A DNA stretch of 24,000 nucleotides from an uncultured archaeon (lineage in GTDB: Archaea > Asgardarchaeota > Thorarchaeia > Thorarchaeales > Thorarchaeaceae). This document shows, in pieces, positions 1 to 24,000 of the stretch. The notes beneath the pieces are model-generated. The model was not told the origin of the DNA and made no database searches. It saw only the letters and a program-made list of their open reading frames with translations. The translations under genes were made by a program, and so were the position numbers. The stretch's first letter is position 1. Each line of letters starts with the position of its first letter. The stretch spans positions 41,193 through 65,192 of the forward strand of contig CAZLEV010000002.1 of assembly GCA_964558645.1 (NCBI GenBank), given 5' to 3'.

Positions 1-927
1 GATGAAGGGATAAAGAAGGCACTGCGTGACAGAGGAGCCAAGAAAGCAGCATACGTTGCCTACGAGGAACCCGACAGACGAAAGGAGGACAGACCAAACA
101 CGGCACTCTGGCCTCAGACAATTGCCAGACATGGCCTATTACGTCCACCCAATGCAGAGATCCTTGCGCCATTCACGCACAACGCGTTATACATTGCGCG
201 ATCTGTGGCGGTCTATGACTCAATGCTCCAGAGATATCGTGATGAGTCGCGTCCGTTCAAATCAACCGAGATTAGTACAAGTCCAAAATTGTGTAGGAGC
301 CTCATCACGCTTGCTGGGGCTAGAAGAGGAGACACAGTCCTTGACCCATTCTGCGGAACAGGAACTCTTCTTATGGAAGCAGCACTCTTGGGGATGCGAT
401 GTGTGGGCATCGACATTGATGCTAATGCGGTTCAGGGAACAGCTGCGAATCTCAAGTGGCTAGGCAAAGAGCTTGAAGAATACCTTGATTTCCGAGTCCT
501 CCATGGCGATGCGCGAGATAGCGAACATCTGGTTGCGGAGAAGGTAGATGCGATTGCATTTGAGCCCTACCTTGGTCCACTTTACGAGAATCAACCAGCA
601 GAACCAGAGGCCAGAGCCTTGACCAAAGACCTGACAGAGTTATATCGAGACTCGCTGAAGTCGCTAGCGGCCATCCTGAGACACGATGGAAAGGTTGCGA
701 TGACTATCCCCGTGATCAATTGCAGGACCGGAAAAGTAAGAATCGATCTTGATCGCATGTTGTCAGAAACGCCCTTCCGGATACACAAGATGCTACCGGG
801 CGGAGTATTCAAGAGTGATCCCAACAGAAACACACCTTACATGATAAGACCAAACAGAGACCTGCTTCCCGAACGAAAGTGGGGACAAGTAGTTCAGCGG
901 CAGGTGATTACACTAAGTATCTCTTAG
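1..927 (+). CDS. SAM-dependent RNA methyltransferase, UPF0020/Trm11-like (N2-guanine tRNA MTase family), 5'-truncated by the window edge
   Basis: Frame +1 is open from nt 1, so the track ORF at 205 starts on an internal GTG. Motif I is 'VLDPFCGTGTLLMEAALLG', followed by 'CVGIDID'. The upstream 'SPKLCRSLITLAG' resembles the Trm11/Trm-G10 pre-motif-I arm. Motif IV is the atypical 'FEPY' (559-570) rather than D/NPPY. Confidence 0.7.
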   Translation, partial: DEGIKKALRDRGAKKAAYVAYEEPDRRKEDRPNTALWPQTIARHGLLRPPNAEILAPFTHNALYIARSVAVYDSMLQRYRDESRPFKSTEISTSPKLCRSLITLAGARRGDTVLDPFCGTGTLLMEAALLGMRCVGIDIDANAVQGTAANLKWLGKELEEYLDFRVLHGDARDSEHLVAEKVDAIAFEPYLGPLYENQPAEPEARALTKDLTELYRDSLKSLAAILRHDGKVAMTIPVINCRTGKVRIDLDRMLSETPFRIHKMLPGGVFKSDPNRNTPYMIRPNRDLLPERKWGQVVQRQVITLSIS

Positions 928-1811
928 AAAAGGTATCGTACCACATCGTCGAGGATCGCATATGTCTGCAGTCTCTGGATATCACGCTTGACGTACGGCA
1001 TCAGATGCTCAAATACCATTTGCCGATAGTTGTTCACACCGGCCTGTTCCTGTACCTCTTCGGCAGTTATCCGTAGGAGCTCCTCCAGAGCAGTCCGCAA
1101 GCTTCGGTAAGGGATGTCACCTCTGGAGACGTCTATCTCTAGTACCTCGATTCCACAGTCATCGATAGGTACGGATTCAAGAAACATATATCTCTCAGTG
1201 AGAGGTTCGATTCTGTTGCGGATGCTGCTGGCGATTTCCCGCTTGAGCTTTTTCTTCATGTCTATCTTCATCATCTGACGAAAGAGATGATTATAGACTT
1301 CAAGGCAGTCCATCGATTTGCCTGCGAGCAGACACTCGTCAGTCTCTTCATACTGAGCGACAAGTTCGTCCAAAAAGAATCCGAATTCCTTGAATGCAGT
1401 TGGATCACCATGCCACTCCTTCAATACATTACTGATTCCTCGCTCTTGAGGGATGAAGTTGTTCACGAACTCATTCAACGCGTAGTCAAGCATGAATCGC
1501 ATATGACCGATTCGTGCGGCCTTTGAGATGACCATGACGAAGAGAAGATGCTCATTCGCCTCCCAGACATATCTGCTGTTCTCGGTGTCTATTGTCTTGA
1601 GAGTCTCATTAGAAGCCTTGTCGATGAAGGTGTGAGTCGCAGACAAGAAGGGAGCAATAAGATCCATATCAATGTCAATGCCATCATACGCTCGGGCCAC
1701 GAGATTTCGGCCAGTTCCTCTCTCAATCAGCCACATTCCTAGAATTGAGCGACGTTCGGCCATCTTGAATCGCACTCCTCGTCCGTGCTTCCCCCGTAGC
1801 AAAATAAGCAT
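924..1811 (-). CDS. Hypothetical protein with an N-terminal longin/roadblock-like alpha-beta domain and a helical C-terminal half
   Basis: 295-aa ORF. A more likely start is the ATG at 1763 (MAERRSILGMWLIE), preceded by GAGGAGTG. The N-terminal roughly 100 aa show the hydrophobic pattern 'ILGMWLIERGTGRNLVARAY...HLLFVMVISK...LDYALNEFVNNF', typical of longin/sigma-adaptin/roadblock folds. The rest is predicted helical. The functional assignment is by eye only. Confidence 0.6.
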   Translation of the reverse strand: MLILLRGKHGRGVRFKMAERRSILGMWLIERGTGRNLVARAYDGIDIDMDLIAPFLSATHTFIDKASNETLKTIDTENSRYVWEANEHLLFVMVISKAARIGHMRFMLDYALNEFVNNFIPQERGISNVLKEWHGDPTAFKEFGFFLDELVAQYEETDECLLAGKSMDCLEVYNHLFRQMMKIDMKKKLKREIASSIRNRIEPLTERYMFLESVPIDDCGIEVLEIDVSRGDIPYRSLRTALEELLRITAEEVQEQAGVNNYRQMVFEHLMPYVKRDIQRLQTYAILDDVVRYLF

Positions 1812-5218: not shown

Positions 5219-6616
5219 CTAACCAGAGGTGACTTTTCCCGACTCTACGAGAATAGAGGGAGTTATTGCACCGACAGTCACTCTTGTGTCTTCTCCGACA
5301 ACGCTGACTCTCTTGAGAAGGTCGAGCATGTTGATTCCAAACAGAGTGTTCTTGAGTGCATGTTTAACCTCGCCGTTCTCTATGTAGAAACCCTCCATGA
5401 CCATCGCACTGAGATCTCCGGTTGCCATATTTGGTCGGTCCCCTGTCCGCCGGCATAGGATTCCTCGATCAATCTCTGCAATGAGTTCCTCTTGGGTTCC
5501 GCGCCCCGCCTCGATAATGAGATTTGATGTCGAGATTGACGGCAAGCCTGAATATGACGAACGACTGGCATTTCCGGTGTTCTCAACATTGTCCTTGTGG
5601 GCAGTGTAGGAATTGTGAAGCAGGCTCTTGAGAACCCCTGATTCAAGAACAGAAGTGTGAGTTGATGGAAATCCTTCTGCATCGAATGGTCGGGACCCTA
5701 TGCCACCGGATAGGAGAGAGTTGTCTGCAACGGACAAAGAACCAGAGGCTATCTGCTCTCCCAAGGCATCGCTGATATAAGAGCGCCCGTACTGTACCTC
5801 TTCAGCGTTGACAGCACCGGAGAAGCCGCCACCGATGATGGTGCTCACTGCCAAGGGATCGAGTACGATTTGCATGTCTCCACCGTCGATTGTATGAGCT
5901 CCCAGATTCCTTATTGCGCTTTGTGCAGATGCGATTCCCACATCTTGGGGGTTCAGGTCTCCGACCGCTCTTGATATTTGATACTCGTAGCTTGATGTCT
6001 GCTCGCCTGAATGCTTGATTGTCGGTGAGATATAGAGATAGGCGAAAGAGGTCTTCGCTGAACCAGACACTCCAAGTGAGTTCACGATAGCCCGCTCACT
6101 GACAGACAGATTCAGCTGTGCCTCCACAGCGACTTTCTTTCCAGAGAGAACATCGCGAGCCGAATCAACTGATGTAAGAATAATCTTTGCTGATTCCTCC
6201 GATGTTATCGATTCCGTTTCTGAATCGAAGAGGCCTCTGACATTGGGATATTCTTGGCCAGCAGATGGCAGACTGACAAAATCCGGATCAGGTACGGATG
6301 CACGAGCCAATGCAACGGACCGTTCAACGGCCTCCTCTATGTCCTTCTCTCTAAGCGTTGTGACATATGCAAACCCAATCGCATTATCAATGACAGATCT
6401 GACCCCACAGCCCCCGTCAGATTCTCTTGATGCGGCCTTGACAGCGTTGTTCTCCACGTGGATGTTAAATGATTTCGATAAGGCTGCATACGCCTCGACT
6501 TGGTCTGCGCCAATCTTCTCTGCACGCTTCACCGCATAATTGCCGATAGCGAGGAGCTTCTCTCTCAAATCACAACCCTCCGACAGGCATTCCCCGTATG
6601 CGTGCGTGAGGACCAC
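5219..6616 (-). CDS. pmbA: PmbA/TldE-family metalloprotease subunit
   Basis: 465-aa ORF of the TldD/PmbA fold ('VEAYAALSKSFNIHVENNAV', C-terminal 'GDLSAMVMEGFYIENGEV') lacking the HExxxH motif, located directly downstream of tldD. The ATG at 6616 overlaps tldD by 47 nt. A TTG at 6568, 1 nt after the tldD stop codon, is an alternative coupled start. Confidence 0.85.
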   Translation of the reverse strand: MVLTHAYGECLSEGCDLREKLLAIGNYAVKRAEKIGADQVEAYAALSKSFNIHVENNAVKAASRESDGGCGVRSVIDNAIGFAYVTTLREKDIEEAVERSVALARASVPDPDFVSLPSAGQEYPNVRGLFDSETESITSEESAKIILTSVDSARDVLSGKKVAVEAQLNLSVSERAIVNSLGVSGSAKTSFAYLYISPTIKHSGEQTSSYEYQISRAVGDLNPQDVGIASAQSAIRNLGAHTIDGGDMQIVLDPLAVSTIIGGGFSGAVNAEEVQYGRSYISDALGEQIASGSLSVADNSLLSGGIGSRPFDAEGFPSTHTSVLESGVLKSLLHNSYTAHKDNVENTGNASRSSYSGLPSISTSNLIIEAGRGTQEELIAEIDRGILCRRTGDRPNMATGDLSAMVMEGFYIENGEVKHALKNTLFGINMLDLLKRVSVVGEDTRVTVGAITPSILVESGKVTSG

Positions 6617-7955
6617 CGCTCATATCAGGTACTAATTGACCCGATTTGCCACAGGTTCCAGCATCCATCTTGAAGTCATTCCCTACAGCATCAACCTTCG
6701 AAAGGACATCTAGGATTTGACCCGCCAAGGATATGTCACGCACCATCTGTCCGATCTCCCCATCTTCTATAAGATAACCATGACTGGCCTGAAACATGAA
6801 CTGGCCTTTTGAGGGGTCTGTATACCCGTAGTTGAAACTGCAGAGAAGAATGCCTTCTCCTGTGTCAGCGATCAGTTCGTCAACGTCCCAGTCACCTGGT
6901 TCCATGAATGTGTTACTCATGCGTGGGAGGGGCTCATGCATGAATGACTGAGACCTCGCAGCTCCGTTTGGTTCCATCTCCAAGCGAGAGGCGGTTTCAA
7001 GGCTGTGCAGAAGCTCATTCAGAACTCCATCCTTGACCAGCAAACGTCTTCTGCTCCTCGTTCCTTCCCAATCATATTCAAATGAGCCCCGCTCTCCACT
7101 CATGGTGGGGTCATCAGTCAGATTCAGGTGTTCTGGCCCAACGGTCTTGTCCACCTTGTCCTCGAGGACTGTGGTATGTGCGGGCCAATTGTCAGCCTCG
7201 GTTGCATGCCCAAAGGCTTCGTGCACCATAACACCATTCAAGACAGGATCCATAACGACATCGTAGGTACCGCCCTTTGCTGCAACAGATGAAAGAAGGT
7301 CAATCACCTGCCTTGAGGCGCGTATTCCAACGGTTTGAGCAGCATCGCTTTCCATTGCCTCATACCCACCACGAACTCCGACTGATTTGTGAGCCCGCTG
7401 CCGGTTGCTTCCCTCCTTTGCTGTAGGTGCAGATATTATCCGAGGAAGAGAGTTCTCGAAATGTACACTGGTTCCCAAGGAGTTGGCCACAAAGATGCTC
7501 GAAGACAAATCACCATAGATTGTTCGCGAGTTCACAATCCGATCGTCAAAGTCCAGGGCTTGTTTGTCAATCCTCTTCACAAAATCCATCTTATCCTCTA
7601 TTCGAATGTCTTCAAACGGCTTACGGACGTTAAGTGTGGCTCTGTCCGTAAAGGTCGGTCCATCAATGGTGAAGCAGTCTGCAACATGGTCCTTGGTTGC
7701 CATTGCCAGTCGCGCCACCGACTCACCTGTTTCTTTCATGCCCCTCGTAGTCAGAGTCGTGGTCTGAGCAAACGCCCATGCACCGTCGGCAAAGGCTCTT
7801 ATTCCTGCCCCCTTCAGTCGTGATGCGATGGCCTTTCTTGTTATGCCATCAGAGATCTCAATGACTGTGGTCACAGTATTCTCAATACGGACATCGGCAA
7901 ACGACGCCCCGTTGCTGAGGGCACCCTCAATAGCAGCTTGCGCAAGGTCTTCCAT
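6570..7955 (-). CDS. tldD: TldD-family zinc metalloprotease
   Basis: 461-aa ORF with the catalytic 'HEAFGHATEAD' (HExxxH) motif and the C-terminal 'GTCGKSGQ...VP' signature typical of TldD. Confidence 0.9.
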   Translation of the reverse strand: MEDLAQAAIEGALSNGASFADVRIENTVTTVIEISDGITRKAIASRLKGAGIRAFADGAWAFAQTTTLTTRGMKETGESVARLAMATKDHVADCFTIDGPTFTDRATLNVRKPFEDIRIEDKMDFVKRIDKQALDFDDRIVNSRTIYGDLSSSIFVANSLGTSVHFENSLPRIISAPTAKEGSNRQRAHKSVGVRGGYEAMESDAAQTVGIRASRQVIDLLSSVAAKGGTYDVVMDPVLNGVMVHEAFGHATEADNWPAHTTVLEDKVDKTVGPEHLNLTDDPTMSGERGSFEYDWEGTRSRRRLLVKDGVLNELLHSLETASRLEMEPNGAARSQSFMHEPLPRMSNTFMEPGDWDVDELIADTGEGILLCSFNYGYTDPSKGQFMFQASHGYLIEDGEIGQMVRDISLAGQILDVLSKVDAVGNDFKMDAGTCGKSGQLVPDMSGGPHARIRGMPVGGL

Positions 7956-8056
7956 GGATGCATCCGTCAGAGCTCAGCCAACTGTTATTGATATAACTCC
8001 TTTGAAGGCGCAACGAAGCGCGGATGAGCAATAACTGCGCGGATTCAGCATCCACA

Positions 8057-8080
8057 TGAGTATTGTCATGATAATACTCA
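8057..8080. promoter_or_regulatory. Perfect inverted repeat in the divergent tldD / Zn-ribbon-gene promoter region
   Basis: TGAGTATT-(8 nt)-AATACTCA lies 53 nt upstream of the TTG start at 8133, followed by the AT-rich 'GGTTATTGTGAGCTATAG'. It is a candidate operator. No experimental support. Confidence 0.3.
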
Positions 8081-8132
8081 GGTTATTGTGAGCTATAGTG
8101 GACACTAGTACAAGACCAGCGGAGGCAGTCAG

Positions 8133-9695
8133 TTGAAGGTAGGCAGCTCCCACAGAAGATGCAGAGTTTGTGAGAGGAACACAGCGACTCACATGTGCGA
8201 AGACTGCGGCGAGAACTTCTGTCTGGATTGTCTTGAGAGTAAGACCACAGAGTACTATGTCTGCTCGGAGTGCCATCACACTCTAGGAACTCCAGAAGCC
8301 GGGGAGCCCTTCGAGAAGTGTCCCGAATGCGAGTGTGAAGAACTGAGCACTGGAAAAAGGATAGAGGAAATCTGTCCCCGATGTCACTCCTCTAGGATAG
8401 TCTCTATAGATGACAAGAGAAGGAACCTTGGAAAGAAGCTACGAGAGTCCATCATGACACTCCAGTACGGTCATCTCAAGCTGAGGGAGTTCAACAGCAA
8501 GCTCACTGCTTCGAAGAGACTACTGGTTTCCTTGAGGATGGCCAATTTCCTGCATTATCACTGGATTGAAGACAACATCGAGGGAATCCAAGATGAAGCA
8601 TTGGCCGTGAAGAAGAGAGTTGTCAACCAAGCAGATATGGTCGGGCGTCAGATGGCTGCCGAGACCAAGGGAATAATCGACCCCAGCACCTGGACTCCCG
8701 ATCAGTTTCCATTTATCGAGGGTGTTGCAAACCGAATTGGAGAACTGGGAGAGCATTTCAAGTCTGGTGTTGATGATGCGTTGGATGACTGCGTTGTTCG
8801 ACTAAACGAAACGACAACCCAGCTTGAGGGACTTGACTACTATCGGAAGGAATTTGCGGGGTTCTACGAACATGCCGAACTGTCTGTCAATGAGCTTCCT
8901 GTCTGCGCATTGCCCGAGATTCGAGTTACAGGTAGCGATTTCCTAAAGCATGACAAGGCAACGGGAACACTCTATATAACAAACAAGAGAATTGTGTTCA
9001 TAGCCGAGGTGGGAACATTTCGAAAGAAGATGGAAGTCCTCTTCGATTTTCCCCTTGTCTATCTCAACTCCATGGAGGAGGACGGGAGAATCAGAAAGCG
9101 TCTGGTTCTCAAGATGAAACAGGGAGACCTAAAGATATCCTGTGACGAACAGACCGAAGAGGTCCTTCCAGACTATCTCGAGATAGCAAAGAAGTTCGAC
9201 AGATACATGCAGACAGATATGCAGCGGGTAAGGCGCATTGAACAGTCGAGTTTCAACATCAGTGATGTGCGTCTCAAGATAGAGGAACTTGTGTATTCAC
9301 TCTTGTCTTCAAGCACTCGGAAACGTGCAGAAGATCTCACTATGAACGAGAGATGCCAAGACAGGTATCACTATCAGAAGCGTCCTGCAGCAGGCTATGG
9401 AACCATGAATGGGTATGGGTCTCAGCATTTCACCGACCACCTTGAAGACGTTCTCTCTCGTGCATCTCTTGGACATGGAGAGCGACGCGGAGATATTGAT
9501 CCGCAGGTACAACGGCTCAAAAGAGATGCCAGAGACTTGCAGCAAGCAGTTTCACGAACCGTAGACCTATTCAGGAATCGAAGGCTTGTCTCTGAAGATT
9601 TTGTGAGAAGATACAGGAGCCTAATGCTCGACTCCTACAGAACGCGGAAAGAAATAGATGAGGTCATGAAACAGAGATCTGATTCTCTCTGGTGA
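8133..9695 (+). CDS. ESCRT-locus protein: N-terminal multi-zinc-ribbon (B-box-like) + helical region + GRAM/GLUE-like PH-type domain
   Basis: 520-aa ORF with a TTG start 7 nt after GGAGG (8121-8125). Residues 10-84 carry six CxxC pairs (C10/13, C22/25, C30/33, C44/47, C63/66, C81/84). Residues about 255-340 read 'TGTLYITNKRIVFIAEVGTFRKKMEVLFDFPLVYLNSMEEDGRIRKRLVLKMKQGDLKISC', which matches the G-T-L-x-h-T-x-x-R-h-h-F signature of GRAM/GLUE/bPH domains. The stop is 1 nt from the stop of the convergent ESCRT-III gene. Confidence 0.8.
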   Translation: MKVGSSHRRCRVCERNTATHMCEDCGENFCLDCLESKTTEYYVCSECHHTLGTPEAGEPFEKCPECECEELSTGKRIEEICPRCHSSRIVSIDDKRRNLGKKLRESIMTLQYGHLKLREFNSKLTASKRLLVSLRMANFLHYHWIEDNIEGIQDEALAVKKRVVNQADMVGRQMAAETKGIIDPSTWTPDQFPFIEGVANRIGELGEHFKSGVDDALDDCVVRLNETTTQLEGLDYYRKEFAGFYEHAELSVNELPVCALPEIRVTGSDFLKHDKATGTLYITNKRIVFIAEVGTFRKKMEVLFDFPLVYLNSMEEDGRIRKRLVLKMKQGDLKISCDEQTEEVLPDYLEIAKKFDRYMQTDMQRVRRIEQSSFNISDVRLKIEELVYSLLSSSTRKRAEDLTMNERCQDRYHYQKRPAAGYGTMNGYGSQHFTDHLEDVLSRASLGHGERRGDIDPQVQRLKRDARDLQQAVSRTVDLFRNRRLVSEDFVRRYRSLMLDSYRTRKEIDEVMKQRSDSLW

Positions 9696-9696
9696 G

Positions 9697-10311
9697 CTAG
9701 ACACCTAGCTCTTGCTCCAGTGATTTGATCTCAGCCTCTAATTCTTCGGATTCTGTCATAGGGGCTTTCTTCGCCTGAGATGTAGCTGCGCCAGCTTCTG
9801 CATCTATCTCAGCCATGGCCGCCGCGAGCTCTTCTGAAGTGACTTCACCAATCTCAGTCGTGTCGAGGGCTTCTGTCGATATACTGGACTCTATCTCAAA
9901 CTGCTCCAACCGACGACCAATCTCATCCACATTTTCCACGACCTTCAGTGTGTCCGTGGTATCACCTAGAAGCCCCAGAATGTCAGCGACTTTCTCTAGT
10001 GCAACATTAGCCTTGGCCGTGGTCTGCGCTCGAGTGATATAGGCCAATATCTTTAGGATTTGAAGACGGGACTTGTCTACAGAGAGAGCAAACCGTCGGA
10101 ACCGGACCATCTCAGTAGCGTAGGTCTTGTACGCATCTGCCCTGCCCTCCTTCCTGGCACGCACAGCTCGAGCCCTGGTATCACGAGCTTCTTTCTCGAG
10201 TTTGTTGCGTTCTCGCGCCAGCTGTTTTGACAAAACTCGAAGCTGGCTTGAAACTTCACCGACATCTGGGCGTTTTTTGCCCCATCTGAAAGCCTTTCGA
10301 ATTGGACCCAA
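9697..10311 (-). CDS. ESCRT-III (Snf7/CHMP family) protein, probably of the Vps2/24/46-like group
   Basis: 204-aa ORF with a basic N-terminal helical hairpin ('LSKQLARERNKLEKEARDTRARAVRARKEGRADAYKTYATEMVRFRR'), an acidic C-terminal half and a terminal amphipathic helix 'EELEAEIKSLEQEL'. The TTG start at 10311 is preceded by GAGGGAG with a 6-nt spacer. There is no in-frame ATG until codon 67. Confidence 0.85.
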   Translation of the reverse strand: MGPIRKAFRWGKKRPDVGEVSSQLRVLSKQLARERNKLEKEARDTRARAVRARKEGRADAYKTYATEMVRFRRFALSVDKSRLQILKILAYITRAQTTAKANVALEKVADILGLLGDTTDTLKVVENVDEIGRRLEQFEIESSISTEALDTTEIGEVTSEELAAAMAEIDAEAGAATSQAKKAPMTESEELEAEIKSLEQELGV

Positions 10312-10471
10312 GAGTTACTCCCTCGTCAATCTTATTGCCGTACATAGATGCAAGGAATGAAGACCGTTTAAACCTTCGTAGAACGAGTGACCAGTTCGAT
10401 ATATGAGGCAGACGGTAACTGGGAAATACTGAAGTTCTTAACGGAAGACATCTAATCGCGAGTGAGGTTCA

Positions 10472-11680
10472 ATGGTGGATAGAATAGATCAGGGTCTCAA
10501 GGCACTACTTGACAAGGCAATAGACCTGGACAAGAGAGGTATGGGAAAAGAGGCTTGCCAGTATTATCTGAAGGCTAGCAAAGTGCTGATCAAACTGTCA
10601 AACTCGGCGGCATTGCCCTCTATCAGGAAACACTATCTCAAAAGAGCGCAAGAGTGTGTTGACAGGGTCCGGTATCTCTCCGGCATCAAGAAGAAGTCAG
10701 GACCTGTCCATGGACTCGAAGTACCACCCGAACCCCTTGAGAGAGAAGAGCCAGTTCCTGCTCAAGCCTCTACCGAAGAGAAGGAGATTGACGAGGATAC
10801 CGTCAGGCTGCGAGATATGATAGAAGATACAATAGTTTCGGAGCGCCCAGATGTTAGAATGTCAGAGGTCGCAGATCTCGAGGATGCAAAACAGGCAATT
10901 GATGACGCGATTCTTGCGCCCATGAAACATCCCGAGCTGTTCCGTGGAAAGGCGAGACAGCCTTGGAGAGGTATCTTGCTTTATGGTCCTGCGGGATGTG
11001 GTAAAACACTCATAGCAAAGGCCGTGGCCTCAGAGATTGACGCGACATTCTTCAATGTGTCAGCCGCCAATATAGTAAGCAAATGGCTTGGCGAATCAGA
11101 ACGATTGGTAATGACTCTCTTCGAACTGGCACGTAAGAATCCACCCGCAATAATATTCATCGACGAGCTCGATTCTATAGGAGTTTCCAGATCAGGCGAG
11201 GATGTTGGAGGTGAAAGGCGTCTGAAGACGCAGCTGCTGACCGAGTTGCAGGGGCTCGGTAGTCGCGAGGATGAGAGAATCACGGTAATCGGAGCCACAA
11301 ACCTTCCTTGGGAGCTCGACTTTGCTCTGCGGTCCAGATTTGAGAAAAGAATCCATGTGCCGTTGCCGGGTCGCGATGCTAGAAAGAAGATCTTTGCCAC
11401 TCATATGGAGGAGATAGAGATGGCCCCCAGCGTAGACTTCGCGGAGTTGGCCGATCTGACAGAGGGATACAGCGGACGGGACATCAGTGTTGTGTGTCGA
11501 GAGGCGGCAATGGAACCGATTCGAGAACTCCAAACAAGTGGACGGTTGGATGAGGATGCGGAAATATTCGACCTGAGACCTGTTGAACGTTATGACTTCT
11601 TATCAGCTATAGAAAACATCAGACCTGCAACATCGCCCGAAGATGTCAAGCGGTATATAGACTGGGCGGAGGGCTCATAG
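10472..11680 (+). CDS. vps4: Vps4-like AAA+ ATPase (MIT domain + AAA cassette; CdvC homologue)
   Basis: N-terminal MIT-like three-helix region ('ALLDKAIDLDKRG..EACQYYLKASKVLIKL..HYLKRAQECVDRVRYL'), Walker A 'GPAGCGKT', Walker B 'IIFIDELDS', second region of homology 'ALRSRFEKRIHVPLP', and the Vps4-type C-terminus 'SPEDVKRYIDWAEG'. A GTGAGGT sequence lies upstream of the ATG. Confidence 0.93.
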   Translation: MVDRIDQGLKALLDKAIDLDKRGMGKEACQYYLKASKVLIKLSNSAALPSIRKHYLKRAQECVDRVRYLSGIKKKSGPVHGLEVPPEPLEREEPVPAQASTEEKEIDEDTVRLRDMIEDTIVSERPDVRMSEVADLEDAKQAIDDAILAPMKHPELFRGKARQPWRGILLYGPAGCGKTLIAKAVASEIDATFFNVSAANIVSKWLGESERLVMTLFELARKNPPAIIFIDELDSIGVSRSGEDVGGERRLKTQLLTELQGLGSREDERITVIGATNLPWELDFALRSRFEKRIHVPLPGRDARKKIFATHMEEIEMAPSVDFAELADLTEGYSGRDISVVCREAAMEPIRELQTSGRLDEDAEIFDLRPVERYDFLSAIENIRPATSPEDVKRYIDWAEGS

Positions 11681-11683
11681 CTG

Positions 11684-12388
11684 ATGAATGTTCGTGAGAG
11701 GTCAAAAGAGAAGAAGAAGACCGTCGAGAAGAAGCGTGAGTCGGAAGAAGAGTCAGAAGAGCAAATTGTGATCAAGACTCCCACGGATCAACAAATACCC
11801 GAAGTCAGTGTCAGAGAGGCTGTGACCGTCACAGAGTCCGAAGAACAGGCTGCTGTACCGCAGGAGCCTGCAAGTGAAGTCGAGGATATCTTGCCGCAGT
11901 GGGGGCATGCTGAAGACTCGGAGTGGATGTACCAAGTTCCAGATTACGAGGAGGGTAGACAACTCTGGGCAAGAGATTGGACAGACTTCATACTCACATG
12001 GATGGAGAACCAGAAACTTCATGTCATATCGATCACGACTTTCATAACCGAGAGTCCATTTAGCGAGATTGTTGGCAAGGCGGATGCGTTTGAGATTCTT
12101 GGAGATACCCTTGTAGAAAAGAACATAGCACAATGGATTGGAGATGAGAAGCGTCAGCTTCGAGTCTACTGGCGGCCTTTGGAGGACTGGGCGGATCATG
12201 TCTACCGATGGGCACTCGAAACAGGCTTGATGCGTCTCGATGTGAAGTCGATCGTCATCCAACAGGGTAGAGAAGGTTTCGGACGCCTCCCGGAGGGCGA
12301 CCTTCGCCGTATCATGGAACTGCTTGTAGAACGCGGCTATGCAAGATGGGTGGACAAGGAGCGCGGCGCTGTTGTGCTGGTTGTATGA
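11684..12388 (+). CDS. Vps25-like ESCRT-II subunit (tandem winged helix) with an acidic/lysine-rich N-terminal extension
   Basis: The ATG is 3 nt after the vps4 stop, consistent with an operon. Residues about 85-234 follow the Vps25 pattern ('RQLWARDWTDFILTWMENQKLHV', 'LRVYWRPLEDWADHVYRWALETG', 'LRRIMELLVERGYARWVDKE'). The first 75 or so residues are low-complexity K/E/S-rich. Confidence 0.75.
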   Translation: MNVRERSKEKKKTVEKKRESEEESEEQIVIKTPTDQQIPEVSVREAVTVTESEEQAAVPQEPASEVEDILPQWGHAEDSEWMYQVPDYEEGRQLWARDWTDFILTWMENQKLHVISITTFITESPFSEIVGKADAFEILGDTLVEKNIAQWIGDEKRQLRVYWRPLEDWADHVYRWALETGLMRLDVKSIVIQQGREGFGRLPEGDLRRIMELLVERGYARWVDKERGAVVLVV

Positions 12389-12392
12389 CACG

Positions 12393-13151
12393 CTAGCGAT
12401 TATGCTTGCCGTTCGAGTCGACATCTGTCCTTGATCTTAGGCCCGGGAAGTAGTATCTTCCCCCCGTGCTAAATCGGATGTCGGCCACAGCCATGCCAGC
12501 CTCCACAAGACTGGAGAGGACAGTTCGAGCGTGATCTTCAGACCATTTCAACTTCATGATTACCTCCTCAATAGAGACAAATCCTTTGGACGCTGCGAGA
12601 TTAATCACATCAGCCTGGTCTTGCCGTAGTTCCAAAGGCCTCAATTCGACAACTTTGACGCCTCCGCTCAGTGTTCGAATCCCTGGGATGAGACCGTGCT
12701 CTGCAACTCGATTCACAGCCTCGATCACATCGTTATAGCTGACGGATTTGAGTTCGGGGGTTCGTCGTACAACGTCGACAATCAGCTCTGCCAGCCCCAT
12801 AAGACCCTTTGATGCGTTCTCAGTTGCAACGTCAAGCACCGCCAGACCAATGTAGTCATAGTATTCATCCGATGTCATCCCCTGCATGGAAGCAGCAGAC
12901 TGTTGTGGTAGAATTCGAAGCAGTCCTGCGGCTTCGGGGAAGCGGGAAACAATGCCCTCACTCTCAAAGAATCCGGTTACATCTCTACCCATCCGACGCA
13001 TTCTATCAAGATTCTCTCGGATGTCCATGACAAGAGCCTCTGATTCGCGCTCGTAGGAACGAACATCCACTGCACCCATGTCGAACATCTTCTTGAACTG
13101 ATCCAGCGTGGCTATCGACGCGTAGAGCTCAGATTCAACACGATCATCCAT
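12393..13151 (-). CDS. Vps22/Snf8-like EAP30-domain ESCRT-II subunit
   Basis: It is collinear by eye with Vps22/SNF8: 'DEYYDYIGLAVLDV' (compare DFYYELGVQIIEV), 'VSYNDVIEAVNRV', 'VVELRPLELRQDQADVINLAA..GFVSIEEVIMKLKWSEDHARTVLSSLVEAGMAVAD....YYFPGL'. The track ORF extends to 13277, but that extra N-terminus is Cys/Leu-rich and looks like noise. I chose the ATG at 13151 (MDDRVESELY). Confidence 0.8.
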   Translation of the reverse strand: MDDRVESELYASIATLDQFKKMFDMGAVDVRSYERESEALVMDIRENLDRMRRMGRDVTGFFESEGIVSRFPEAAGLLRILPQQSAASMQGMTSDEYYDYIGLAVLDVATENASKGLMGLAELIVDVVRRTPELKSVSYNDVIEAVNRVAEHGLIPGIRTLSGGVKVVELRPLELRQDQADVINLAASKGFVSIEEVIMKLKWSEDHARTVLSSLVEAGMAVADIRFSTGGRYYFPGLRSRTDVDSNGKHNR

Positions 13152-13168
13152 CTCTATTGCTACCTCGC

Positions 13169-13176
13169 GTTTATAC
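13169..13176 (-). promoter_or_regulatory. TATA-like box (GTATAAAC on the minus strand) upstream of the Vps22-like gene
   Basis: This AT-rich octamer is centred about 22 nt upstream of the ATG at 13151. That spacing fits an archaeal TATA box driving a leaderless or near-leaderless mRNA. Sequence-only inference. Confidence 0.25.
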
Positions 13177-13326
13177 GGTCGACTCTGTACTGGAGTGAGT
13201 TGGAAGCAGCCTCCTTTAAGAGGGAGTATTATTGAGCACCGACTCAAGCACACGCTTCGCGATAGCACAAAGAACATATGTGCAAAACATATCGGAAGGA
13301 CACGAAATCCTGGAGAGGTTGAAGAA

Positions 13327-13491
13327 ATGTCACTACATTGCCATGATATGAAAAAAGGACAAGTCTATGCATGCGAGACCTGTGGCCTTGAAATCAAGAT
13401 CCTCAGCGAGTGTACGGAGTGCTGCAACGACGAGGACCAGTGCGGCTGCAGTTTCACCTGTTGCGGTGATGACTTGACGCTGAAGGAATAG
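13327..13491 (+). CDS. Desulforedoxin-like cysteine-rich metal-binding mini-protein
   Basis: 54 aa with 10 Cys. 'GQVYACETCGLEIKIL...TCCGDDLTLK' parallels the desulforedoxin motif 'VYKCELCGQVVKVL....LVCCGEDM', with an extra loop 'SECTECCNDEDQCGC'. GGAGAGG lies 9 nt upstream of the ATG at 13327. The track ORF start at 13195 is an upstream GTG. Confidence 0.65.
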   Translation: MSLHCHDMKKGQVYACETCGLEIKILSECTECCNDEDQCGCSFTCCGDDLTLKE

Positions 13492-13515
13492 AACCGATAT
13501 CCTTCATCTGAAATA

Positions 13516-13549
13516 GGCCGTGGGCCAAAGCCTCGGCCATAACTTTTTT
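13516..13549 (+). terminator. Hairpin + T6 terminator after the Cys-rich mini-gene
   Basis: GGCCGTGGGC-CAAA-GCCTCGGCC forms a GC-rich stem with one bulge (13516-13538). TTTTTT follows 5 nt later at 13544-13549. Confidence 0.5.
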
Positions 13550-13616
13550 CGCTCCGACTATTGGTGTGTTCATCCCAAGTCCCAAGTTGGAGATTGTGTA
13601 CAGCAAGTGCAGCATT

Positions 13617-14312
13617 ATGGCGAAAGGTACCTCGAGTCCGCATATTGGAACGCTAAAAGAGCGCTCACTCCATGCTGGATTGAAGGAATGGTACAAAGAA
13701 CCGGGCGATTGTTTTGAGGCTGAGGTAGATGGATACGTAATTGATATCGCCCGAGAGAATCTGTTGGTAGAGATACAGACCACAGGTTTCTCAGTAATCA
13801 AAGCGAAACTCCGGGATCTTCTCACCAGACACAATGTGCGTCTCGTCTATCCAGTGATATCAGAGAAGTATATAGTGAAAGAAACGCCTGATGGATCAGA
13901 AGTGATCGAGAAACGTCTCTCACCCAAGAAGGAGAGTTTCCACGACGTCTTCTATGAGATGGTTTACCTTCCGAGACTCATCGAACATCCTCGTTTCAGT
14001 ATCGATGTCTTGCAGGTCAGGGCAGAGGAGACTCGCCGACGGGACGGACATGGTAGTTGGAGACGCAGAGGCTGGAGTATCGTTGATACTGAACTAGTGG
14101 AAGTAGTAGATAGGCAGTTGTTTGAGAGCCCATCAGATCTACTGAGGCTTATCCCACAAGACCTGACGAATCCGTTCACCAATGCTGAACTGGCAGAGCG
14201 AATCAAGCGGCCATCTGCTTTGGCAAGGAAGATGACGTATACTCTCAGGAAGATAGGAATCGTGAAGTTAGTGGGTAGACGCGGAAGAGCCCATCTCCAT
14301 TCCATCACCTAG
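13617..14312 (+). CDS. PD-(D/E)xK-fold nuclease-like protein (CoiA-like 'EIQ' motif) with a C-terminal winged-helix domain
   Basis: 'EAEVDGYVIDIARENLLVEIQTTGFSVIKAK' gives a D...E-x-Q/K arrangement like CoiA-type restriction-endonuclease folds. The C-terminal 'FTNAELAERIKRPSALARKMTYTLRKIGIVKLVG' is wHTH-like. I prefer the ATG at 13617 over the upstream GTG at 13566. Confidence 0.55.
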   Translation: MAKGTSSPHIGTLKERSLHAGLKEWYKEPGDCFEAEVDGYVIDIARENLLVEIQTTGFSVIKAKLRDLLTRHNVRLVYPVISEKYIVKETPDGSEVIEKRLSPKKESFHDVFYEMVYLPRLIEHPRFSIDVLQVRAEETRRRDGHGSWRRRGWSIVDTELVEVVDRQLFESPSDLLRLIPQDLTNPFTNAELAERIKRPSALARKMTYTLRKIGIVKLVGRRGRAHLHSIT

Positions 14313-22632: not shown

Positions 22633-24000
22633 CTAAAAGAACTGGTCAAGTGTGGTGAATCCCATGAGTTCTTCGAAGTCTATACCAACAGAATCCAGCA
22701 CCTGACCGAATACCGATCTCAACGTATCAATGTACTTGTCCTTGTCAATGAAATAGGTTCCCTCCTCGGCCAATTCAACGGGAAGGACGCCCTCGGGACC
22801 CTTAGTCTTGATGTATTCAACAATAGTTCCCGACGGCACCTCATAGCCTGCATCACGAAGCTGGATTGCAGCGCGGACATGCTGTGGTGTCGTCTTACCA
22901 TATTGTGCTATCTCCTTGGTCATCTGAACCCGGAAGGCCAGGTCTTCTGGGCTATACGGTTCAGTCTTCCCTTCAAGCCTATCAAGAACAACATTGACAA
23001 TCTCACGAATCTCGTCTTTTGCTGCTTTGAATCCCTCTCTGTTGTCAACACGGCTCAAAACATCGAGCATCTCTCTGAAGGCGTCTTGCACAAAGTCGGG
23101 AGTGTTACGTTTCTTTCCACTGAGACCCTTGACCTCAACATAACCCGAGTCGTAGACCCCGATGTAGTTCTTCTTTCGATCGGAGAGTGCAACATACTTG
23201 TAGGTCTTCTCTACCTCGAGATCTATACCCAGTTCATCTTGAGACCATTTGACAAGCTCAGCTTGTTGTTCAGAGGTCGGATTGTCCAGAAACACGGAGT
23301 CGGTGTCGCCATAGAGGACCCGAACGCCCATGGACTCTGCTTTCTCTTTCGTCCTGATAATTGCGTGTCGTCCATAAGCTGTGACGCTCTCGGCAGCGGG
23401 CATACAGAACAGCTCGAAATGCTGAGCTCCTGTGACCCCGTAGCTGTTGTGCACTACAATTCCATTGGTTGACACAAAGAGTCCATTTCCTGTTTCAAGG
23501 TCGTAAGTCTGCTCAGGGTCAGCTCTCCTCTCTATCGAGCGGATTCTCACGGTACGAGTGCCGTTGAAGTCAATCAATCCTCGCCCCGTTCGCTGGTACT
23601 TCAGCCCCTTCGTTTCGACAACACGATAGATAGATTCATCGCGATGCACGGATGCATGTCTTCCCAATGCTCCGAGGAGATACAGAATATCATGAGCCAG
23701 TTGCTTGCTAGAAGTGGTATATCGCCTATTACCACGGACATTGATGTTCCCATCACCCTTGAAGAACGATTCAAGGACAACTCGCGCTCTTCTTTCATCA
23801 AGCAGTCGAAGGGGAATGGATTTGCTCTTTGAGTAACTGCCACAAAGGTGCTCCATGATTGCTGCGAGTGTCTTCGAGTGAATGACATGGTCTTTCTTCG
23901 AATAGACGGCAAAGGGTAGGTCCATCCGTTGCAAGAGTGACCCAATCTCATTGAAGTAGACTGGATTGACTTCCTGATACTGTGAAATGGATACCCGATT
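22633..24000 (-). CDS. polB: Family-B DNA polymerase, C-terminal part, interrupted by an intein (the gene continues beyond the window)
   Basis: The frame is open through nt 24000, and the track start at 23934 is an internal TTG. Extein sequence: 'SYGVTGAQHFELFCMPAAESVTAYGR' (the tail of the region III/motif B KxxxNSxYG...SVT.GR signature) and 'YGDTDSVFL' (motif C), followed by the thumb domain. Intein sequence lies upstream. Confidence 0.92.
   Translation of the reverse strand, partial: NRVSISQYQEVNPVYFNEIGSLLQRMDLPFAVYSKKDHVIHSKTLAAIMEHLCGSYSKSKSIPLRLLDERRARVVLESFFKGDGNINVRGNRRYTTSSKQLAHDILYLLGALGRHASVHRDESIYRVVETKGLKYQRTGRGLIDFNGTRTVRIRSIERRADPEQTYDLETGNGLFVSTNGIVVHNSYGVTGAQHFELFCMPAAESVTAYGRHAIIRTKEKAESMGVRVLYGDTDSVFLDNPTSEQQAELVKWSQDELGIDLEVEKTYKYVALSDRKKNYIGVYDSGYVEVKGLSGKKRNTPDFVQDAFREMLDVLSRVDNREGFKAAKDEIREIVNVVLDRLEGKTEPYSPEDLAFRVQMTKEIAQYGKTTPQHVRAAIQLRDAGYEVPSGTIVEYIKTKGPEGVLPVELAEEGTYFIDKDKYIDTLRSVFGQVLDSVGIDFEELMGFTTLDQFF
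23446..24000 (-). mobile_element. Intein (C-terminal part) with a LAGLIDADG homing-endonuclease domain, inserted in motif B of PolB
   Basis: It ends 'TYDLETGNGLFVSTNGIVVHN|S': blocks F and G, the terminal His-Asn, and a +1 Ser (23443-23445). The LAGLIDADG-type motifs 'VLESFFKGDGNI' and 'ILYLLGALG' are present. The N-terminal splicing domain lies beyond nt 24000. Confidence 0.85.

Follow-up and report, generated by a model that had tools for sequence, protein, structure and literature searches.

Does the compact ESCRT locus considered here depart from the arrangement usual in Asgard archaea, or is it the ordinary form for its lineage? The preliminary description of the window (the whole 24,000 nt stretch that was analysed) took it for a departure, pointing to a lone ESCRT-III gene, the lack of any ESCRT-I or steadiness-box gene, the lack of ubiquitin, E1 and E2 genes nearby, and an unassigned gene within the block. 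Our analysis indicates that the block is very probably a lineage-typical Thorarchaeota ESCRT locus: correctly identified, published before and ordinary within its clade.

Genes of the ESCRT block

The block comprises five real ORFs, oriented right-left-right-right-left in the ORF list: the gene for a 520 aa protein (8133..9695, + strand, TTG start), the gene for a 204 aa Snf7-family ESCRT-III protein (9697..10311, − strand, TTG start), vps4 (10472..11680, + strand, 402 aa), vps25 (11684..12388, + strand, 234 aa) and vps22 (12393..13151, − strand, 252 aa). Between the divergent ESCRT-III and vps4 genes lies an intergenic region of 160 bp (10312..10471), presumed by position only to hold their promoters. 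The stop codon of vps4 is separated from the start codon of vps25 by 3 nt, and the two genes are probably co-transcribed. Our overall reading, in all likelihood correct, divides the locus into four transcription units: the gene for the 520 aa protein, hereafter Znr_CC_PH_SB; ESCRT-IIIA; vps4-vps25; and vps22. The ORF calls agree with the coordinates, orientations and 3 nt spacing first described, including the Vps22 start at 13151. A longer ORF start at 13277 was rejected because the homologues, 245-260 aa in length, share a conserved first motif and begin at that motif, which is the one at the 13151 start.

The window can indeed be placed in Asgard: the nearest genome match is a Thorarchaeota metagenome-assembled genome with a Vps4 identity of 94%, and almost every named homologue of the block proteins bears the label Thorarchaeota. 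The accompanying statement that ESCRT-II occurs only in eukaryotes and Asgard archaea is slightly dated, given the structurally ESCRT-II-like proteins reported outside Asgard in 2024 (PMC10936438).

Pfam recovered Snf7, AAA/Vps4_C, ESCRT-II and EAP30, confirming the four gene identities originally proposed. The ESCRT-III protein scored 34.6 bits against a Snf7 gathering score of 27.3, and the profile of its orthologues matched CHMP1B (1e-8), CHMP1A, CHMP2A, CdvB and CHMP3, with Snf7/CHMP4 absent among the matches; by these profiles it is of the IIIA (Vps2/24/46) type. Thorarchaeota commonly have the IIIB paralogue as well, encoded on its own amid housekeeping genes. Vps4 exceeded the Pfam cutoffs for AAA (133.9 bits), AAA_lid_3 (51.3 bits) and Vps4_C (27.0 bits), and its MIT domain scored 26.3 bits (E 8e-6), slightly below the cutoff of 30; the translation carries the Walker A motif GPAGCGKT and the Walker B motif IIFIDELD, and the best NCBIfam match was CdvC, over residues 15-400. 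Vps25 consists of an acidic N-terminal extension of about 90 aa followed by a winged-helix core, with PF05871 (ESCRT-II) matching residues 95-183 at 47.4 bits (cutoff 27). For Vps22, EAP30 (PF04157) scored 52.1 bits against 26.8, and the best Foldseek matches of the AF2 model (pLDDT 78) were human and yeast Vps22 (E 2e-9). A domain scan of the remaining window ORFs of at least 100 aa found no further ESCRT, ubiquitin, E1 or E2 domains, in keeping with the single ESCRT-III gene and the local absence of ubiquitin, E1 and E2 genes noted at the outset.

The 520 aa protein and the N-terminus of Vps22

The gene that had been left unassigned encodes the Thor ‘steadiness-box’ (SB) protein: it shares 54% identity across 505 aa with ThorAB25_08990, which is labelled ‘SB’; the earlier claim that no steadiness-box or ESCRT-I gene is present therefore does not stand. 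Judged by sequence, the protein falls in Znr_CC_PH_SB (cog.011556), an Asgard family described earlier, which has been put forward as an ESCRT-I component whose PH domain would bind membranes (Makarova et al. 2024, mBio, PMC10936438). It has the family's order of parts: three Zn ribbons, then a helical or coiled-coil stretch, then the PH domain and, at the C-terminus, a helical hairpin. More than 120 homologue clusters were found at E<1e-160, the named ones nearly all from Thorarchaeota. Pfam gave weak matches alone (B-box 0.036, bPH_3 0.07, GRAM 0.08), and the mean pLDDT of the AF2 model was 79.

Residues 1-91 (8133..8405, + strand) hold three Zn-ribbon modules with six CxxC/CxxCH pairs, predicted by AF2 to form short beta-hairpins. 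Across 31 homologues, C22, C25, C30, C33, C44, C47, C63, C66, C81 and C84 are invariant and C10 and C13 are kept in at least 90%; Zn binding is predicted from these conserved residues. The window protein is read from a TTG start lying 20 codons further upstream than in the published ThorAB25 construct sequence, and so includes a conserved CxxC pair that the latter does not contain. Three long helices follow in the AF2 model (aa 92-240; 8406..8852, + strand), at residues 92-136, 143-177 and 189-240 with pLDDT mostly 76-96, as a predicted coiled-coil or helical stalk. The PH-like (GRAM/GLUE-like) domain at aa 256-358 (8898..9206, + strand) is modelled as seven strands and a C-terminal helix; its Foldseek matches were Lam6, MTMR2 PH-GRAM, Sec3 and the Vps36 N-terminal PH domain 2cay (E 6e-3, TMt 0.55-0.57), and the weak Pfam GRAM and bPH_3 matches cover residues 274-318.

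Beyond a disordered linker (residues 395-454), the AF2 model ends in a steadiness-box-like helical hairpin (aa 457-519; 9501..9689, + strand) made of helices 457-481 and 487-519 (pLDDT 84-92), in which F490, R492 and L497 are invariant in the homologue alignment; the hairpin has a conserved FxRRYxxL face. Its assignment as a steadiness-box module is statistically weak: the profile matches fall consistently on Vps23 steadiness-box regions, at E 0.02-0.03 for Odin and Heimdall Vps23 (hhalign probability about 2%) and E 0.4-0.9 for the yeast Vps23 core in the PDB profile search, and Pfam Vps23_core gave no match on the 520 aa protein. For Vps22, hhalign, BLAST and PDB profiles delimit a Vps28-N-like helical hairpin domain at aa 1-80 (12912..13151, − strand). 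It aligned with Odin Vps28 over 77 columns (hhalign probability 96.4%, E 1.2e-9); BLAST of Vps22 against a small database returned Odin Vps28 and the Heimdall Vps23-Vps28 fusion at E 1e-7; and the top PDB profile matches were the yeast Vps28 core (E 0.04-0.09). Residues 1-70 of the Thor orthologue KXH75178 match PF03997 with an HHpred probability of 99% (PMC10936438). By these profile comparisons, the N-terminal 80 or so residues of Vps22 are homologous to the N-terminal domain of Vps28. With the SB protein and this part of Vps22, the block would thus contain ESCRT-I-type modules.

Conservation in Thorarchaeota and comparison with other ESCRT systems

The five-gene block and its flanks, ArgRS and two PmbA/TldD genes followed by AspRS, also occur in three other Thorarchaeota genomes. 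The block has been published as ThorAB25_08990–09030 (SB, ESCRT-IIIA, Vps4, Vps25 and Vps22; Hatano et al. 2022, Nat Commun, PMC9192718, Supplementary Data 1). Thorarchaeota AB_25 is a different Thorarchaeota genome from that of the window and matches the block gene for gene, order included, with identities of 54% (SB), 68% (ThorAB25_09000, ESCRT3A), 77% (Vps4, ThorAB25_09010), 45% (Vps25, ThorAB25_09020) and 73% (Vps22, ThorAB25_09030); there, as well, the second ESCRT-III (ThorAB25_07240) is encoded away from the block. Locus tags of Znr/Vps22 homologues are spaced as five adjacent genes in GF411_11685/11705, BAJATHORv1_10428/10432, HXY34_03170/03150 and ACP6KW_01410/01390, and as six genes in JW779_12735/12760; for 15 further homologue pairs, the longest contig is equally long in both members. 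Being the usual arrangement of its lineage, the block is ordinary for its clade rather than a departure. The preliminary description had allowed that the same block with all canonical partners might prove standard here; standard it is, in a form without those partners.

Nor is the lack of ubiquitin an oddity, as it had been reported for Thorarchaeota before (PMC9192718); UEV-Vps23 is missing from both Thor and Loki (bioRxiv 2023.07.25.550441). The lone ESCRT-III is likewise no peculiarity: in Lokiarchaeum GC14_75, the cluster Lokiarch_37450-37480 brings together Vps22, Vps25, Vps4 and one ESCRT-III of the IIIA-like group (Lokiarch_37480, adjoining vps4), and the second, Lokiarch_16760, is unlinked. 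Loki differs in having ubiquitin and in encoding Vps28 and Vps23 as proteins of their own; its Znr_CC_PH_SB gene is outside the cluster, and its Vps22 has no Vps28-N match, the BLAST alignment with the window Vps22 covering residues 110-238 only. The Thor Znr_CC_PH_SB profile retrieved a 649 aa Asgard (Promethearchaeota) protein (E 8e-34) in a Lokiarchaeum-like context: its gene adjoins one for L35Ae and lies 4 kb from a Snf7 gene, an arrangement that mirrors GC14_75 (PMC10936438 Table S2). The Thor protein is shorter (about 520 aa versus about 650 aa) and its gene directly abuts the ESCRT-IIIA/vps4/vps25/vps22 block, whereas the distant homologues examined do not.

The Vps28-N-type and Vps23-type hairpins of the eukaryotic ESCRT-I headpiece (the Vps23-Vps28-Vps37 core; 2F66, 2CAZ, 2P22) have apparent counterparts in the block, and the same structures are the PDB matches of the two window hairpins. 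Compared with eukaryotic ESCRT-I, the block lacks the UEV domain, Vps37, Mvb12 and the Vps28 C-terminal domain, and it carries its Vps28-N module as part of Vps22. The Thor PH and Zn-binding modules resemble the yeast Vps36 GLUE domain (2CAY) with its NZF fingers, but are carried by the SB protein rather than by a Vps36 paralogue, in a lineage without ubiquitin.

A putative ubiquitin-independent pathway and its alternatives

The reading that we favour, with high confidence, is of a lineage-typical, ubiquitin-independent Thor locus in which two SB-type hairpins would couple a PH/Zn-ribbon adaptor to ESCRT-II, ESCRT-III and Vps4; within it, we infer the pairing of the hairpins, the binding of lipid, the sequence in which the parts assemble and the process that they serve in the cell. 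The 520 aa protein, a proposed ESCRT-I-like adaptor, would act upstream and bind membrane, cargo or both through the GRAM/GLUE-like PH domain together with the three Zn ribbons. Its helical stalk would project from this part and lead, past the flexible linker, to the Vps23-type hairpin, which may pack on the Vps28-N-type hairpin at the N-terminus of Vps22 much as Vps23 and Vps28 do in the eukaryotic headpiece. ESCRT-I would thereby be shrunk to two hairpins, one covalently joined to ESCRT-II. Thor Vps22 pairs with itself in published Y2H data, in which SB-protein interactions were seen as well (PMC9192718). Vps25 would bind Vps22, and together they may nucleate polymers of the local IIIA and the unlinked IIIB subunits, which Vps4 would remodel and disassemble via its MIT domain and the ESCRT-III C-terminal helix. 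A ubiquitin or UEV step would be absent from the pathway, because Thorarchaeota have neither.

In eukaryotes, Vps25 recruits the Vps20-type (IIIB) subunit. In the block, vps25 is instead linked to the IIIA gene and IIIB is encoded elsewhere, which is unlike that order and counts against the proposed mechanism.

It is very improbable that the locus is an atypical, reduced one that lost ESCRT-I and one ESCRT-III and received an unrelated Zn-ribbon/PH gene. Although Vps23_core, VPS28, Mod_r and UEV stayed below the Pfam threshold on all five proteins and the window holds one Snf7 gene alone among its ORFs of at least 100 aa, the arrangement is conserved in Thorarchaeota, which keep IIIB elsewhere; the supposed insertion is an orthologue of the Thor SB protein already published, from a family spread across Asgard, and a Vps28-N domain is present on Vps22. 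We also consider it unlikely that the genes form a Cdv-like division machine, with ESCRT-III and Vps4 driving cytokinesis as in Thermoproteota and the 520 aa protein as a CdvA-like membrane recruiter, instead of serving sorting or vesicle budding. The CdvC and CdvB matches of Vps4 and ESCRT-III, the proposed homology of SB and CdvA hairpins (PMC10936438; bioRxiv 2023.07.25.550441) and the lack of a ubiquitin-type cargo signal in the lineage would fit such a machine, but Vps22 and Vps25 (ESCRT-II) are foreign to Cdv systems, PRC-barrel CdvA is absent, the Asgard ESCRT literature considered contains no Cdv-type division role for these proteins, and the window content has no bearing on division.

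A rewired pathway is possible, if doubtful: the SB hairpin could bind another SB or Vps28-type protein (BAR-SB, free Vps28) or ESCRT-III rather than the N-terminus of Vps22, whose Vps28-N domain would then serve dimerisation. Thor Vps22 self-interacts in the published Y2H data (PMC9192718), and other Thor SB-containing proteins exist, such as the BAR-SB protein KXH73277 (Makarova et al., PMC10936438). The profiles of the two hairpins have no clear mutual similarity (hhalign 23%), and the Lokiarchaeum family member lies near a IIIB/Vps20-type gene, not vps22. Against this, and for the pairing with Vps22 that we favour, speak the direct partnership of the Vps23 and Vps28 hairpins in eukaryotic ESCRT-I (2F66, 2CAZ, 2P22), the reported interaction of the Loki SB protein with Vps22 (PMC9192718), and the tight and stable linkage of the Thorarchaeota Znr_CC_PH_SB gene to the vps22-containing block.

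Composition of the ESCRT block

Five adjacent genes make up the ESCRT block, and ORF calling together with Pfam searches confirmed the coordinates proposed in the preliminary description. A gene for a 520-aa protein (8133-9695, plus strand, TTG start) is followed by a Snf7-family ESCRT-III gene (9697-10311, minus strand, 204 aa, TTG start), vps4 (10472-11680, plus strand, 402 aa), vps25 (11684-12388, plus strand, 234 aa), which begins 3 nt past the vps4 stop codon, and vps22 (12393-13151, minus strand, 252 aa). The vps22 ORF is extendable to 13277; because the homologues are 245-260 aa long and start at the same conserved motif, the start at 13151 that had been chosen is correct.

The HMM check suggested for these proteins recovered Snf7, AAA, ESCRT-II/Vps25 and EAP30 above cutoff, and MIT just below it. 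ESCRT-III matched PF03357 (Snf7) at 34.6 bits across residues 22-187 (gathering score 27.3), Vps25 matched PF05871 at 47.4 bits across residues 95-183 (cutoff 27) and Vps22 matched EAP30 at 52.1 bits (cutoff 26.8). Vps4 carries AAA (133.9 bits), AAA_lid_3 (51.3 bits) and Vps4_C (27.0 bits) matches, all above cutoff, as well as the MIT match (26.3 bits, E 8e-6, cutoff 30). Its sequence contains a Walker A motif (GPAGCGKT) and a Walker B motif (IIFIDELD), and its best NCBIfam match is CdvC, over residues 15-400. Run as isolated segments, the Vps25 N-terminus and the stalk of the 520-aa protein gave nothing useful with Pfam.

The other window ORFs with a length of 100 aa or more were scanned for domains. 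Two encode methyltransferase-like proteins; the rest comprise TFIIB, the synthetases ArgRS and AspRS, a pair of PmbA/TldD peptidases, a class-III aminotransferase and a fragment of a family-B DNA polymerase, while several had no match. No further ESCRT or ubiquitin-system component was found among them.

Conservation of the block in Thorarchaeota

The locus is a known, lineage-typical Thorarchaeota ESCRT block, and the preliminary description was mistaken in regarding its arrangement as unusual. When species-representative genomes were scanned with Vps4, one orthologous locus emerged (L001, in Candidatus Thorarchaeota MAG TEKIR_12S, 94% identity), in which the ORFs, their order and their lengths are those of the window block, both TTG starts included. 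The remaining loci of that scan were set aside, as only the AAA+ region aligned, at 36-44% identity; so was a Bathyarchaeia locus (L009), where Vps4 residues 15-400 aligned at 37% identity only. In two more distant Thorarchaeota genomes (L082/L083, from BAJATHOR, and L084), gene calls run from ArgRS through two PmbA/TldD genes to the approximately 520-aa protein and then to Snf7, encoded on the other strand; AAA/Vps4 and ESCRT-II (Vps25) come next, followed by EAP30 (Vps22), again on the other strand, and AspRS. In another 15 cases, the longest contig given for a homologue of the 520-aa protein equals in length that given for a Vps22 homologue; four pairs of locus tags have the spacing of five neighbouring genes, and a fifth (JW779) that of six.

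The same block has been published. The Thor AB_25 proteins that Hatano et al. 2022 assayed by yeast two-hybrid appear in their Supplementary Data 1 (PMC9192718) as ThorAB25_08990|SB, 09000|ESCRT3A, 09010|Vps4, 09020|Vps25, 09030|Vps22 and 07240|ESCRT3B. Identity between the window proteins and ThorAB25_08990-09030 is 54% (SB, across 505 aa), 68% (ESCRT3A), 77% (Vps4), 45% (Vps25) and 73% (Vps22), and these values, together with the Pfam matches, bear out the original naming of ESCRT-III, Vps4, Vps25 and Vps22. For Thor SMTZ1-45, the accessions KXH75181 (ESCRT-III), KXH75180 (Vps4) and KXH75178 (Vps22) (Makarova et al. 2024, PMC10936438) are numbered in a manner consistent with the same five-gene block.

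Assignment of the contig to Asgard archaea was also right, and can be narrowed to Thorarchaeota by the Vps4 match in L001 and by the named homologues: almost every homologue of the 520-aa protein, Vps22 or the second ESCRT-III whose source is named comes from Thorarchaeota. On these matches we rejected a non-Asgard archaeon with ESCRT-II-like proteins, of the kind described by Makarova et al. in 2024.

The flanks of the block show both constancy and variation. The two PmbA/TldD-type metallopeptidase genes (5219-7955, minus strand) lie in tandem with a 47-nt overlap, and in each of the four Thor loci compared the pair sits directly upstream of the block. Between vps22 and AspRS (13195-14312, plus strand) are a Cys-rich 98-aa ORF and a 248-aa ORF, neither with a family match; this interval is variable among Thor genomes: L082/L083 have a single unannotated 376-aa gene there and L001 has 264 aa, whereas in L084 it is empty.

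The ESCRT-III type and its unlinked paralogue

The ESCRT-III gene of the block is, on the evidence of profile comparisons, of the Vps2/24/46 (ESCRT-IIIA) type, since a profile of its orthologues matches CHMP1B (1e-8), CHMP1A, CHMP2A, CdvB and CHMP3, with no match to Snf7 or CHMP4 and Heimdall IIIB at 0.027 only. The orthologue profile of ThorAB25_07240 behaves in the opposite way, matching Heimdall ESCRT-IIIB (2e-9) and yeast Snf7. In all-against-all BLAST, too, the window protein falls with the IIIA proteins of Thor and Heimdall. The conserved C-terminus (EELExEIKSLExELG), in which L191, I195, L198 and L202 are invariant in five orthologues, has a MIM1-like hydrophobic spacing, but acidic residues occupy the positions that are Arg and Lys in the consensus of MIM1, an MIT-interacting motif.

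It had been remarked that only one ESCRT-III gene is present. That is true of the block but not unusual, because the IIIB gene is unlinked in Thorarchaeota. The Thor IIIB paralogue (ThorAB25_07240 type) is strongly conserved in Thorarchaeota, with 186 matches, those listed being 71-97% identical; its gene stands alone amid housekeeping genes, and none of the contig sizes listed for it equals those listed for the ESCRT block. In the EU546 Thor MAG, which served as a proxy for the source genome (its Zn-ribbon protein is 84% identical to that of the window), IIIB is EU546_04505 and the Zn-ribbon gene is EU546_07425. Lokiarchaeum similarly has a single ESCRT-III, Lokiarch_37480, by vps4.

The BLAST comparison also bears on published names. 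Lokiarch_37480, labelled ESCRT3B in PMC9192718 Supplementary Data 1, groups with Thor and Heimdall ESCRT3A and the window protein, and Lokiarch_16760, labelled ESCRT3A there, groups with IIIB proteins; judged by these groupings, the two labels look swapped relative to those of Thor and Heimdall.

ESCRT-I-type modules and a possible ubiquitin-independent pathway

The preliminary description had left the 520-aa gene unassigned and had reported that no steadiness-box or other ESCRT-I gene was present. Neither claim survives: the identity of the 520-aa protein to ThorAB25_08990|SB marks it as the Thor steadiness-box protein, Znr_CC_PH_SB, and Vps22 carries a Vps28-N-like domain. Makarova et al. 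(PMC10936438) define Znr_CC_PH_SB (asCOG cog.011556) as an Asgard-specific family that combines three Zn ribbons and a coiled coil with a PH domain and a steadiness box, and they suggest that it is part of ESCRT-I, its PH domain being associated with the membrane.

Pfam gave only weak B-box, bPH_3 and GRAM matches for the 520-aa protein, and its architecture was read from alignments and an AF2 model (mean pLDDT 79). Six CxxC(H) pairs at residues 10-85, common to 31 homologues, are predicted to form three Zn ribbons, and the first 91 residues of the model contain small beta-hairpins. Residues 92-240 make up three long helices, and residues 256-358 a sandwich of seven strands that ends in a helix. 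The stretch 395-454 is a disordered linker, and 457-519 is a confidently modelled helical hairpin in which F490, R492 and L497 are invariant. PH-like domains are the top Foldseek matches in the PDB, among them Lam6, MTMR2 PH-GRAM, Sec3 and the Vps36 N-terminal PH domain (2cay; E 6e-3, TMt 0.55-0.57). DH-PH proteins lead the Foldseek list, but at an rmsd of approximately 20 Å, so that homology to RhoGEFs was rejected and the match read as helices plus a PH domain.

The steadiness-box assignment of the C-terminal hairpin is the weakest element of this architecture, and comes mainly via literature labels. As an isolated segment the hairpin has no Pfam match; its profile aligned weakly with the yeast Vps23 core (E 0.4-0.9) and, at low probability, with Odin and Heimdall Vps23 (E 0.02-0.03), all of these weak alignments falling on Vps23 steadiness-box regions.

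The family is a broad one: an exhaustive profile search with E up to 1e-3 gave 121 cluster representatives, and many of these are 480-900 aa long. A 649-aa Asgard protein matched the Thor profile at E 8e-34; its gene adjoins L35Ae, with a Snf7 gene 4 kb off, a context that resembles the Lokiarchaeum GC14_75 context of cog.011556 (Makarova Table S2). In another Asgard genome, a distant 555-aa member (L085, region 7757-13673) has no ESCRT genes next to it; its neighbours are a Roadblock-Arf/Ras GTPase fusion on one side and a ribophorin-I-like protein on the other.

The start of the 520-aa gene deserves separate mention. Initiation at the TTG at 8133 adds a segment of 20 codons (8133-8195) with the C10/C13 CxxC pair, conserved in at least 90% of the 31 homologues. 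A 100%-identical database copy is 500 aa long, begins at an internal Met and omits this pair, and the published ThorAB25_08990 yeast two-hybrid sequence likewise lacks the first conserved CxxC pair. TTG at 8133 is therefore the probable correct start, the first Zn site may be incomplete in Met-start annotations and in the published Thor SB construct, and interactions of that construct may be under-reported.

The EAP30 protein of the window is best taken as Vps22 rather than Vps36, judging by its predicted fold. In its AF2 model (pLDDT 78), residues 2-24 and 30-53 form an N-terminal hairpin, after which come a flexible linker, a helix (94-111) and a two-winged-helix core, and human and yeast Vps22 are the best Foldseek matches (E 2e-9), above Vps36 chains (8e-7). 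Profile comparison indicates that the N-terminal 80 residues are a Vps28 N-terminal core domain. A profile built on residues 1-84 of Thor Vps22 aligned with residues 36-112 of Odinarchaeota Vps28 (hhalign 96.4%, E 1.2e-9), BLAST in a small database matched Odin Vps28 and a Heimdall Vps23-Vps28 fusion (both E 1e-7), and the top PDB profile matches were yeast Vps28 core chains (E 0.04-0.09). HHpred has matched residues 1-70 of Thor KXH75178 to PF03997 at 99% (Makarova Table S3, PMC10936438). The Vps28 C-terminal four-helix domain is absent from Vps22: the VPS28 Pfam match spans profile positions 2-58 of 188 only, and in the AF2 model the chain runs from the Vps28-N-like part straight into its own core. 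Close paralogy between this hairpin and that of the 520-aa protein is unsupported (23% probability in profile-profile comparison).

No window ORF scanned matched UEV or UQ_con, and Thorarchaeota have been described as lacking UEV-Vps23 (bioRxiv 2023.07.25.550441). No ubiquitin, E1 or E2 turned up when the window ORFs with 100 aa or more, and also the 98-aa ORF (13195-13491), were searched. The earlier statement that these genes are not nearby is thus true of the ORFs scanned, but describes no departure, as Thorarchaeota lack ubiquitin in the literature (PMC9192718).

Our data establish the domain content of the block and its stable linkage. In the mechanism that we infer as the most likely, the PH/Zn-ribbon protein would bind membrane or cargo, and its Vps23-type hairpin would pair with the Vps28-N hairpin of Vps22, by analogy with the eukaryotic ESCRT-I headpiece. 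Vps22 and Vps25 would then nucleate ESCRT-III, which Vps4 would recycle. This scheme has no ubiquitin step because Thorarchaeota lack both ubiquitin and UEV-Vps23. The process so served may be budding, scission, repair or division. It is plausible that the 520-aa protein is wired otherwise, through other steadiness-box proteins or by direct contacts with ESCRT-III. A more far-reaching reading, which we consider possible but on balance unlikely, is that the block encodes a self-contained, ubiquitin-independent ESCRT pathway in which ESCRT-I exists only as two hairpins, the steadiness box on a PH/Zn-ribbon adaptor and Vps28-N on Vps22, paired into one ESCRT-I/II supercomplex that feeds ESCRT-IIIA and Vps4. 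If so, it would be a living example of a proposed building-block stage in ESCRT evolution.

Asgard ESCRT loci bear on the origin of eukaryotic membrane trafficking, but the system seen in the window is of a kind already described. Publications of 2022-2024 cover the block and its gene order, the SB/Znr_CC_PH_SB protein, the Vps28-like N-terminal part of Thor Vps22 and the absence of ubiquitin from Thorarchaeota. The practical value of our analysis lies in a corrected reading, with ESCRT-I-type modules embedded in the block rather than missing, in the probable start-codon correction and in a testable hypothesis of two-hairpin pairing.

Two further window genes merit comment. Approximately 6 kb from the ESCRT block, a 295-aa protein (924-1811, minus strand) has a sub-threshold match to the FUZ/MON1/HPS1 first longin domain (E 6e-4, 20.4 bits, cutoff 26.1), and L082/L083 and L084 have an unannotated gene in the corresponding syntenic position; the protein is possibly an Asgard signature protein related to trafficking. 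Lastly, a LAGLIDADG_3 match within the family-B DNA polymerase segment (22633-23934, minus strand) suggests that polB carries an inserted intein or homing endonuclease.
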